This document shows positions 6,782-6,935 of a stretch of 26,772 bases of DNA, in pieces. Source of the stretch: a virus. Its lineage: Duplodnaviria; Heunggongvirae; Uroviricota; Caudoviricetes. The position numbers and the translations under genes are program-made. The first letter of the stretch is position 1, and each line of letters starts with the position of its first letter. The DNA is taken from positions 1 to 26,772 of IMG/VR virus record IMGVR_UViG_2778260994_000003; one strand, given 5' to 3'. The notes beneath the pieces are model-generated. The model was given only the letters and a program-made list of their open reading frames with translations, had not been told where the DNA came from and ran no database searches.

Positions 6782-6856
6782 TGGAGCGGGTAGCGGGAAT
6801 CGAACCCGCATCATCAGCTTGGAAGGCTGAGGTAATAGCCATTATACGATACCCGC
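6782..6856 (-). tRNA. tRNA-Gly (anticodon UCC), phage-borne glyT-like
   Basis: Folds by hand into a cloverleaf: acceptor GCGGGTA/TACCCGC, anticodon stem TCAGC/GCTGA, loop CTTCCAA, T-loop TTCGATT, CCA encoded. Nearly identical to host glyT as recalled, with a compensatory base-pair change in the acceptor stem. Confidence 0.9.
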
Positions 6857-6859
6857 ATA

Positions 6860-6935
6860 TGGTGCCGACTACCGGAATCGAACTGGTGACCTACTGATTA
6901 CAAGTCAGTTGCTCTGCCTGCTGAGCTAAGTCGGC
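6860..6935 (-). tRNA. tRNA-Thr (anticodon UGU), phage-borne
   Basis: Acceptor GCCGACT/AGTCGGC, D stem GCTC/GAGC, anticodon stem ACTGA/TCAGT, loop CTTGTAA, T-loop TTCGATT, CCA encoded. There is one A-C mismatch in the T stem. Confidence 0.8.

Follow-up and report, generated by a model that had tools for sequence, protein, structure and literature searches.

Why should a prophage of Escherichia coli carry its own genes for two transfer RNAs (tRNAs) that its host already makes? The question is raised by a stretch of 26,772 nucleotides, positions 1 to 26,772 of the IMG/VR virus record IMGVR_UViG_2778260994_000003 (hereafter the window). It is a lambdoid prophage of E. coli, in which a tRNA-Thr(UGU) gene and a tRNA-Gly(UCC) gene lie in tandem. 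The explanation that we favour, with moderate confidence, is that both are functional genes which a lambdoid lineage captured from a host operon, and that they are kept as a self-contained cassette that would add gene dosage for the decoding of ACA and GGA codons.

The tRNA genes that ARAGORN calls in the window number exactly two; they lie on the minus strand and score far above the gathering score of 29 bits for Rfam family RF00005 (Table 1). On the coding strand the order is Thr, TAT, Gly. The original prediction, made by reading the sequence, had described two tandem tRNAs between a methylase gene and the lysis genes, and it was right about their coordinates, anticodons, 3-nucleotide spacing, strand and neighbours; a tRNA gene finder, the check that it proposed, leaves both genes standing. 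Each gene encodes its 3' CCA and has the T loop TTCGATT, and each has an anticodon loop of seven nucleotides (CUUGUAA for Thr and CUUCCAA for Gly) with U33 and a purine at position 37. The identity elements of E. coli threonyl-tRNA synthetase are G1:C72, C2:G71, G35 and U36, and those of glycyl-tRNA synthetase are U73, G1:C72, C2:G71, G3:C70, C35 and C36; on inspection of the aligned sequences, all of them are kept in the corresponding prophage gene. These are genuine, intact tRNA genes, and neither is a pseudogene.

The possibility that tRNA-Thr is nevertheless a pseudogene was considered on account of an A-C mismatch in its T stem, which had been noticed at the outset, and we have rejected it. 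The mismatch (A52-C62) is real, but it cannot be read as decay: host thrU has the same mismatch, which is therefore ancestral, and the prophage gene scores 69.8 bits. A permissive Rfam scan of positions 5900-8800 found nothing significant by way of a third, degenerate tRNA or a known small RNA.

The origin of the two genes can be read from their alignment with E. coli K-12. The Thr gene differs from thrU only by U16C and U20C, both in the D loop, and the Gly gene differs from glyT only by the compensatory replacement of C6:G67 with U6:A67, so that the early description of this gene as host glyT with one changed acceptor-stem pair is confirmed. All four differences fall outside the anticodon arm and the synthetase identity elements. 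Over its 154 nucleotides the pair is 97.4% identical to the host genes, and it shares with them the anticodons, the anticodon arms, the T arms (A52-C62 included), the CCA ends and the gene order. In K-12 that order is thrU, 8 nt, tyrU, 116 nt, glyT, 6 nt, thrT and then tufB, and the prophage pair retains it minus tyrU. Unlike the host operon, the prophage lacks tyrU and the 116-nucleotide spacer, has no thrT or tufB after the pair, and has another promoter and leader. The TAT between the prophage genes matches one nucleotide of the 3' flank of thrU plus two nucleotides of the 5' flank of glyT, which fits an internal deletion of tyrU, although three nucleotides cannot prove one. By these comparisons the pair looks like a recent derivative of the host thrU-tyrU-glyT cluster from which tyrU has been removed, and it illustrates cleanly how a phage can acquire tRNA genes from its host.

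The host has one copy each of thrU and glyT, and ACA and GGA are decoded by no other tRNAs than theirs. Since the prophage genes so nearly copy essential host genes, they might be carried in order to compensate for a host tRNA gene that is destroyed by integration, an arrangement (tRNA-dependent lysogeny) which is reported for mycobacteriophages (PMC10865867). But this prophage is not at thrU or glyT; at one end it adjoins a major facilitator superfamily (MFS) transporter gene, and its integrase lies at the other. Moreover, genomes with an identical cassette have an intact thrU-tyrU-glyT locus, with two matching places per record. With an undamaged host locus in those very genomes there is no disrupted gene to compensate for; this explanation is excluded, and we give it practically no weight.

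The pair is common. Of 5426 complete E. coli genomes, 5421 contain matches to it, at 6580 places in total; since each matching genome has the two-piece host locus, some 1,150 of these places are extra, tandem copies. Nine complete genomes, most of them from human isolates of enterotoxigenic E. coli (ETEC), contain the 501 bp surrounding the tRNAs at 100% identity, with the genes annotated as tRNA-Thr and tRNA-Gly. No complete E. coli genome holds the whole window, and the best records cover 80% of it at 99.4% identity. An exact-pattern scan found the junction between the two genes in more than 119 IMG/VR viral contigs and in 17 GTDB stretches, which come from E. coli, Shigella flexneri, E. ruysiae, Citrobacter braakii and Enterobacter hormaechei, and some of which are probably contaminated metagenome-assembled genomes. 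The pair is known from more than 130 prophage loci. It stands by itself, as in the window, at 54 loci, and it forms the end of longer arrays at others: CAU-Lys(UUU)-Thr-Gly at about 45 loci and CAU-Arg(UCU)-Thr-Gly at about 18. ARAGORN calls the CAU tRNA of these arrays Met, but it looks like a tRNA of the Ile2 type (ileX/ileZ).

Comparison of the related loci shows strong conservation of the genes within strongly variable surroundings. Among 117 IMG/VR copies of each gene, 70 of the Thr genes are identical to K-12 thrU and 52 of the Gly genes to K-12 glyT, and the alleles found in the window are derived minority forms; the spacer is TAT in 115 of 117 loci. The Gly pair 6:67 is CG in 71 of 128 related loci, UA in 51, UG in 4 and mismatched in 2, which is a classical compensatory series through a wobble intermediate and marks the genes as constrained. 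The tRNAs remain at least about 96% identical while their flanks split into 25 upstream and 23 downstream clusters, the window's upstream sequence being shared by 12-20% of the loci and its downstream sequence by 33-46%.

It is here that the principal rival explanation arises. The pair might be a neutral passenger or a recombination linker, host-derived and without a selected translational role, which lasts because it does no harm, takes up little room and, through its 154 bp of near-identity among diverged lambdoid late regions and with the host chromosome, serves as a junction for homologous recombination, by which late modules are shuffled. An explanation of this kind would agree with the free combination of upstream and downstream flank types (the window's downstream type is paired with four main upstream clusters), with the occurrence of the Thr 16/20 and Gly 6:67 alleles in all four combinations, with the abrupt loss of homology to the window at the tRNA borders, and with the retention of the pair in the window even though the prophage there is defective. 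It would also agree with imperfect copies: some of the 117 have uncompensated stem changes, and at two IMG/VR loci the Gly gene diverges completely after position ~28-32, in the anticodon loop, where we see likely recombination or insertion breakpoints inside the tRNA gene. The compensatory evolution at Gly 6:67, with only 2 of 128 copies mismatched, speaks against it, as do two further observations that concern the promoter and the choice of codons.

The first of these is found directly upstream of tRNA-Thr. The original prediction had assigned the pair to the late operon, and it does lie on the late strand, downstream of Q and of the terminator tR' and upstream of the lysis genes; but the late transcript would not be its only source, for the cassette appears, on the evidence of sequence and conservation, to have a conserved promoter of its own. 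This predicted promoter is of the sigma-70 type (Table 1). The upstream sequences of Thr-Gly-only cassettes comprise 27 distinct ones. Each of these has a TTGxxx -35 element, a 16-nucleotide spacer and a TATTAT-like -10 element, and in 24 of the 27 the -10 element ends 6-8 nucleotides before a leader hairpin, while the sequence between the elements diverges. That 27 divergent sequences should all keep a promoter at a constant distance is difficult to account for unless expression is selected, and it counts against a mere passenger or linker. We rate that explanation as unlikely, though it is the main rival to added decoding capacity.

The remaining signals around the genes complete the picture of a separate transcription unit. 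Because its promoter lies downstream of tR', expression of the cassette probably does not depend on Q, and the tRNAs would probably be made in the lysogen as well as after induction. The A+T-rich stretch that runs from the end of the methylase gene to the -35 element is a possible UP-like region; the arrangement TTTACA...TTGAYA recurs upstream of the cassette in divergent loci. Some 360 nucleotides past tRNA-Gly there is a strong terminator-like hairpin, which is likely to mark the end of the cassette's own transcript and to be read through by Q-modified polymerase. The whole has the appearance of a unit that is nested in the late operon and yet autonomous.

We also considered whether this promoter and the hairpin that follows it might themselves be the late promoter pR', and ruled this out. 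At loci where Q, of any of three unrelated families, is directly upstream, a separate pR'-like region and tR' lie between Q and the cassette promoter, and so the cassette promoter is not pR'. In the window the homologue of that region is at 8717-8621. By blastn, 8717-8540 has homologues in the late regulatory region near Q in 386 phage records, mostly from Shiga toxin (Stx)-converting phages, one of which annotates a 'terminator' there. The region homologous to 8621-8717 yields the small RNA StxS in lysogens of Stx phages (PMC7547250). In the window, the pR'/tR' region is split from Q by an inserted gene on the opposite strand.

Between the predicted promoter and tRNA-Thr, from about +1 of the predicted transcript to 3 nucleotides before the tRNA, lies the conserved leader hairpin. 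It consists of a 6-bp stem (GGUUCC/GGAACC), a 2x2 GA/GA internal loop, a second stem with a G-rich and a pyrimidine-rich arm, and a variable apex, the general form being GGUUCY-GA-RGGG...CCCY-GA-RGAACC. Its predicted folding energy is -18.5 kcal/mol (z = -1.75). When 19 variants are folded jointly, RNAalifold arrives at this basal structure again, with a covariation term of only -0.53; paired cells make up 86.6%, compared with 28-68% when the partners are slid, and the pair 6:27 occurs as CG in 6 sequences, UA in 6 and UG in 4. Strong covariation support for the hairpin was not obtained, as 98 of 500 shuffles reach the observed score. Its total length ranges from 47 to 66 nucleotides with the spacing of the arms, and the GA/GA mismatch is kept on both arms. 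Both points favour an element acting at the level of RNA over a binding site in double-stranded DNA, but they do not prove one.

A motif scan of the whole collection gave 122 hits for the hairpin, and in 84 of them tRNA-Thr(UGU) follows at +4. Two further hits are copies of promoter and hairpin without tRNAs (L007 2434-2494 and L089 7151-7209), each joined to the usual trailer and some 600 nucleotides upstream of an intact cassette; the remaining hits that were inspected look like chance matches in unrelated contigs, so that the hairpin occurs with this cassette alone. The permissive scan of 5900-8800 gave no Rfam match for the hairpin, nor any Rfam tRNA signal that would make it the remnant of a tRNA, its resemblance to a T arm being only vague. 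One may suppose, as a speculative reading that we think is probably wrong, that the hairpin is an undescribed cis-acting RNA element of the cassette, acting in precursor stability, in RNase P processing or in insulation within the late transcript, or else that it is released by RNase P as a stable small RNA with targets of its own in the lysogen. The conserved promoter and the leader hairpin are the only items here that are new, and they are only mildly so.

How, then, would such a cassette work? Its source would be the enterobacterial thrU-tyrU-glyT-thrT-tufB operon, with tyrU and the spacer lost. Its parts would be, in order, the A+T-rich region, the sigma-70-type promoter, the 5' hairpin, tRNA-Thr, 3 nucleotides, tRNA-Gly, the trailer and the terminator. 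In the lysogen the cassette promoter would give Q-independent transcription, to which Q-modified polymerase from pR' would add read-through transcription after induction; RNase P and 3' exonucleases would then free both tRNAs. The outcome would be a second gene copy of the sole decoders of ACA and GGA, that is, more decoding capacity for the genes of the prophage and its cargo.

The original prediction had proposed a comparison of codon frequencies as a check on such a benefit. We compared 25 open reading frames (ORFs) of the window, comprising 5985 codons, with 42 K-12 genes, comprising 14790 codons. ACA accounts for 30.6% of Thr codons in the window (104/340) and for 10.2% in the K-12 sample (80/784), which is a 3.2-fold excess per 1000 codons (Fisher p = 4e-16). 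GGA accounts for 21.3% of Gly codons in the window (81/380) and for 7.8% in the sample (89/1135), a 2.25-fold excess per 1000 codons (Fisher p = 1.5e-11). The predicted excess is therefore present. In the closely related prophage of ETEC-2265, which has an identical tRNA locus, the corresponding values are 20% for ACA and 17% for GGA, as against 10% and 8%. An excess of ACA over the host (17.3% versus 7.1%) has likewise been reported in phage SfI, which carries a tRNA-Thr(UGU) downstream of Q (PMC3636060).

Several considerations weigh against supplementation as the function of the pair. Other codons are skewed as strongly or more strongly (AGA 6.9-fold, AGG 6.7-fold, AUA 5.3-fold and UCA 3.0-fold), and this prophage has no tRNA for any of them: the skew is generic for this foreign DNA. 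In the ETEC-2265 prophage, which looks intact, the share of ACA among the Thr codons of structural late genes is no higher than 13.9%, the host value being 10.2%. What stands for the host is a 50-kb sample of K-12 rather than the strain's own genome. The morphogenesis genes have been lost from the window, and the classical benefit to virion production is inapplicable here; without head and tail genes this defective prophage makes no virions that could profit, and if there is a benefit today, it would fall to the lysogen or to what is left of the prophage and cargo genes. The promoter is itself predicted from sequence, and a single extra copy of a tRNA gene may have a negligible effect.

The family as a whole provides the second observation that speaks against a neutral linker. 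Its members carry, in this slot, tRNAs for AUA, AGA, ACA and GGA; of the 15 codons compared (A-ending sense codons and AGG), these four rank among the six with the largest excess. Some arrays also hold an odd Lys(UUU). The contents of the slot are thus limited to decoders of codons over-represented in the phage, and this repertoire supports codon supplementation at the level of the family. The proposal that the tRNAs supplement ACA and GGA therefore stands in so far as both codons are over-represented, and is weakened in so far as AGA, AGG and AUA are skewed further. We conclude that the most likely role of the pair is a modest supplement of gene dosage for these two codons, with the passenger or recombination linker as its main rival.

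A further role that had been suggested at the outset is to counteract defences that target tRNAs. The prophage tRNAs would, in that case, replace host Thr(UGU) and Gly(UCC), or resist their loss, under attack by an immune or toxin system. For other isoacceptors there are precedents (PMC11464382, PMC11555353, PMC10264068), the model being phage T5, in which tRNA-Lys works against PARIS and tRNA-Tyr against Retron-Eco7 PtuAB. A Q-independent promoter would suit protection, and the window's copies do differ from the host genes outside the anticodon arm, at positions 16 and 20 of the D loop and at the acceptor pair 6:67. Positions 27-43, however, are identical to thrU and glyT. An anticodon-loop escape rule has been proposed for phage tRNAs (PMC10264068); since the anticodon stem-loops are the same as in the host, that pattern of escape is absent here. 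The many prophage copies of both genes that are identical to the host genes throughout imply that a resistant variant is not a conserved property, and the variant alleles reassort freely.

A limited search of the literature on tRNA-targeting defence gave no report of a system directed at Thr(UGU) or Gly(UCC), the named targets being Lys, Tyr, Met and others. A defence system within the window that could explain such a role was also looked for, and this candidate was rejected: PADLOC found no tRNA nuclease or tRNA-targeting system among the cargo proteins, only weak and irrelevant hits, and what Pfam shows there is a BCCT transporter, a DUF2254 protein and an Mrr_cat nuclease. A role as nuclease-resistant decoys is consequently not supported by the sequences, and nothing points to replenishment through extra dosage. 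We consider counter-defence improbable for this pair.

Its relatives may be another matter. In the four-tRNA arrays (more than 31 IMG/VR loci, for example L006 1122-1198), the Lys(UUU) gene has the anticodon loop CCUUUAA, in which C33 replaces the near-universal U33; it is closely related to the Arg(UCU) gene at the same position in other arrays. This tRNA is a candidate nuclease-resistant tRNA-Lys, and its presence would fit arrays able to hold anti-nuclease variants.

The coordinates of all features are collected in Table 1.

Table 1. Features of the window, from the tRNA cassette outwards, with strand and the evidence for each.
Feature	Position	Strand	Evidence and remarks
tRNA-Thr(UGU)	6860..6935	-	ARAGORN; Rfam RF00005 69.8 bits, E = 1.5e-13; alignment to K-12 thrU
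Spacer, 3 nt, TAT on coding strand	6857..6859	-	Sequence; comparison with related loci
tRNA-Gly(UCC)	6782..6856	-	ARAGORN; Rfam RF00005 65.6 bits, E = 2e-12; alignment to K-12 glyT
Conserved 5' leader hairpin	6939..6988	-	Fold, RNAalifold, conservation
Sigma-70-type promoter (predicted)	6997..7024	-	-35 TTGAAA 7024-7019, 16-nt spacer, -10 TAATAT 7002-6997; consensus scan, conservation
A+T-rich stretch, methylase stop to -35	7025..7103	-	GC 0.40; -35-like TTTACA, TTGATA
Intrinsic-terminator-like hairpin	6404..6423	-	AACCGCC-GTTCCG-GGCGGTT + T8; terminator scan
N6/N4 DNA methyltransferase, directly upstream of cassette	7104..8150	-	PF01555, E = 5e-45; RefSeq annotation
pR' leader and tR' terminator	8621..8717	-	tR' at 8642-8621; terminator scan; blastn homology
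Orphan ORF, 427 amino acids, 40% GC, between Q and pR'	8751-10034	+	No match in Pfam or PADLOC
Antiterminator Q	10241..10594	-	PF06530; Pfam, RefSeq annotation
hok/sok type I toxin-antitoxin	12462-12786	-	Rfam sok 106.7 bits at 12615-12786; hokD ORF 12462-12617
Cargo block: Mrr_cat restriction-endonuclease-domain protein (278 amino acids) and adjoining ORF of 317 amino acids, 29% GC	13149-15233	-	Pfam
Integrase end, then immunity and replication genes	25477 onward	-	Gene order on minus strand
Holin	5642-6034	-	Pfam, RefSeq annotation
Holin	5374-5652	-	Pfam, RefSeq annotation
GH108 endolysin	4827-5372	-	Pfam, RefSeq annotation
MFS transporter gene	1-1284		At prophage end opposite integrase

In minus-strand order, DUF968 and rusA follow hok/sok and precede Q, a small ORF lies between the pR'/tR' region and the methylase gene, and bor/iss lies past the endolysin. 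The 750 or so nucleotides from tRNA-Gly to the holin (6035-6781) contain no convincing ORF, those of at least 25 amino acids being short, overlapping or spanning a terminator; terminator-like hairpins are present at 6423-6404 and 6074-6059. Pfam scans and annotation find no head or tail genes left in the window, and this copy of the prophage is defective. Within 1-2901, nohD is truncated near 2688 and fused to remnants of tail fibre genes (Phage_fiber_2, DUF4376). The ETEC-2265 prophage keeps its head and tail genes, and its terminase gene is split by an element of the IS66 family. The cargo block differs from ETEC-2265; the genes for the BCCT transporter and the DUF2254 protein adjoin it inside the prophage. 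The 317-residue protein has no family match, and together with the Mrr_cat protein it may form a defence pair.

It remains to place the cassette among known systems. As a discovery it matters little, being an ordinary and widespread lambdoid late-region tRNA cassette of a kind already known: RefSeq genomes of E. coli and the records of several phages list these identical genes under the names tRNA-Thr and tRNA-Gly. The tandem pair is annotated in SerU-LTIIb (KU052038), phi467, vB_EcoS-683R6, vB_EcoS-689R5, vB_EcoM-606R7, JLK-2012 and PhiR47_1. More generally, it is textbook knowledge that lambdoid and Stx phages have tRNA cassettes at this place, and the original prediction was justified in stating that lambdoid phages commonly carry tRNAs here, as SfI, Sf6, ST64T and p21 do (PMC3636060) and as Stx2a_1447 does, with ileZ-argN-argO behind its methylase gene.

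The ileZ-argN-argO cassette of Stx2 phages (Stx2a_1447, AP012536; Sp5 of O157:H7 Sakai) occupies the same late-region slot as the pair in the window. The two phages share a backbone of Q, one or more ORFs on the opposite strand (in Stx2a_1447, hypothetical genes between Q and pR'), pR'/tR', a small ORF, a DNA methylase gene and then tRNAs, from which it follows that the tRNAs of the window fill the standard tRNA slot downstream of tR'. The Stx2 cassette, too, is immediately preceded by a sigma-70 promoter of its own and followed by a terminator, and it decodes codons that are over-represented in the phage; in an Stx2a phage, the transcription start site of a promoter between tR' and the tRNAs has been mapped by differential RNA sequencing (PMC7547250). 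The cassette of the window shares these traits of the Stx type, in its position, in its own predicted promoter and in the over-represented codons that it decodes. It differs in its tRNAs, which in the Stx2 phage are Ile2 (CAU), Arg and Arg, and in its promoter and leader: in Stx2a_1447 a promoter of the form TTGCAG-17-TATTAT lies directly before ileZ, with no hairpin leader, and the longer Thr-Gly arrays share this different type (TTGCAx-17-TATTAT, abutting the first tRNA). After the tRNAs, Stx2a_1447 has stx2AB where the window has about 750 nucleotides without a convincing ORF before the holin.

Shigella phage SfI, like Sf6, ST64T, PS3 and p21, resembles the window in having tRNA-Thr(UGU) downstream of Q in a lambdoid phage (PMC3636060); in SfI, which we liken to the window by description only, the partner is tRNA-Asn(GUU) rather than tRNA-Gly(UCC). 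In Escherichia phage SerU-LTIIb the methylase gene, the promoter, the hairpin and the region downstream are about 89% identical to those of the window, but its cassette is duplicated and its lysis genes are followed by LT-IIb toxin genes. One of its Thr copies (L002 1122-1197) has the anticodon UCU, and is annotated as tRNA-Arg, together with G24A, which leaves a D-stem mismatch, and A31G; it lacks A20, an identity element of arginyl-tRNA synthetase. This copy is either an anticodon-shifted tRNA or a decaying duplicate. At two IMG/VR loci the same Thr-derived gene has the anticodon UUU (G35U, with A26G).

The anti-defence tRNAs of T5, finally, are alike in being phage copies of host isoacceptors, but they differ from the host in the region recognized by the nuclease and match a known target, whereas the anticodon arms in the window are identical to those of the host, and Thr(UGU) and Gly(UCC) are not known to be the target of any system. 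The variants of this family point to a few candidates for anti-nuclease roles, and the contents of the slot as a whole support codon supplementation. The cassette of the window is an apparently autonomous unit with a predicted promoter of its own downstream of tR', and it therefore probably acts both in the lysogen and after induction.

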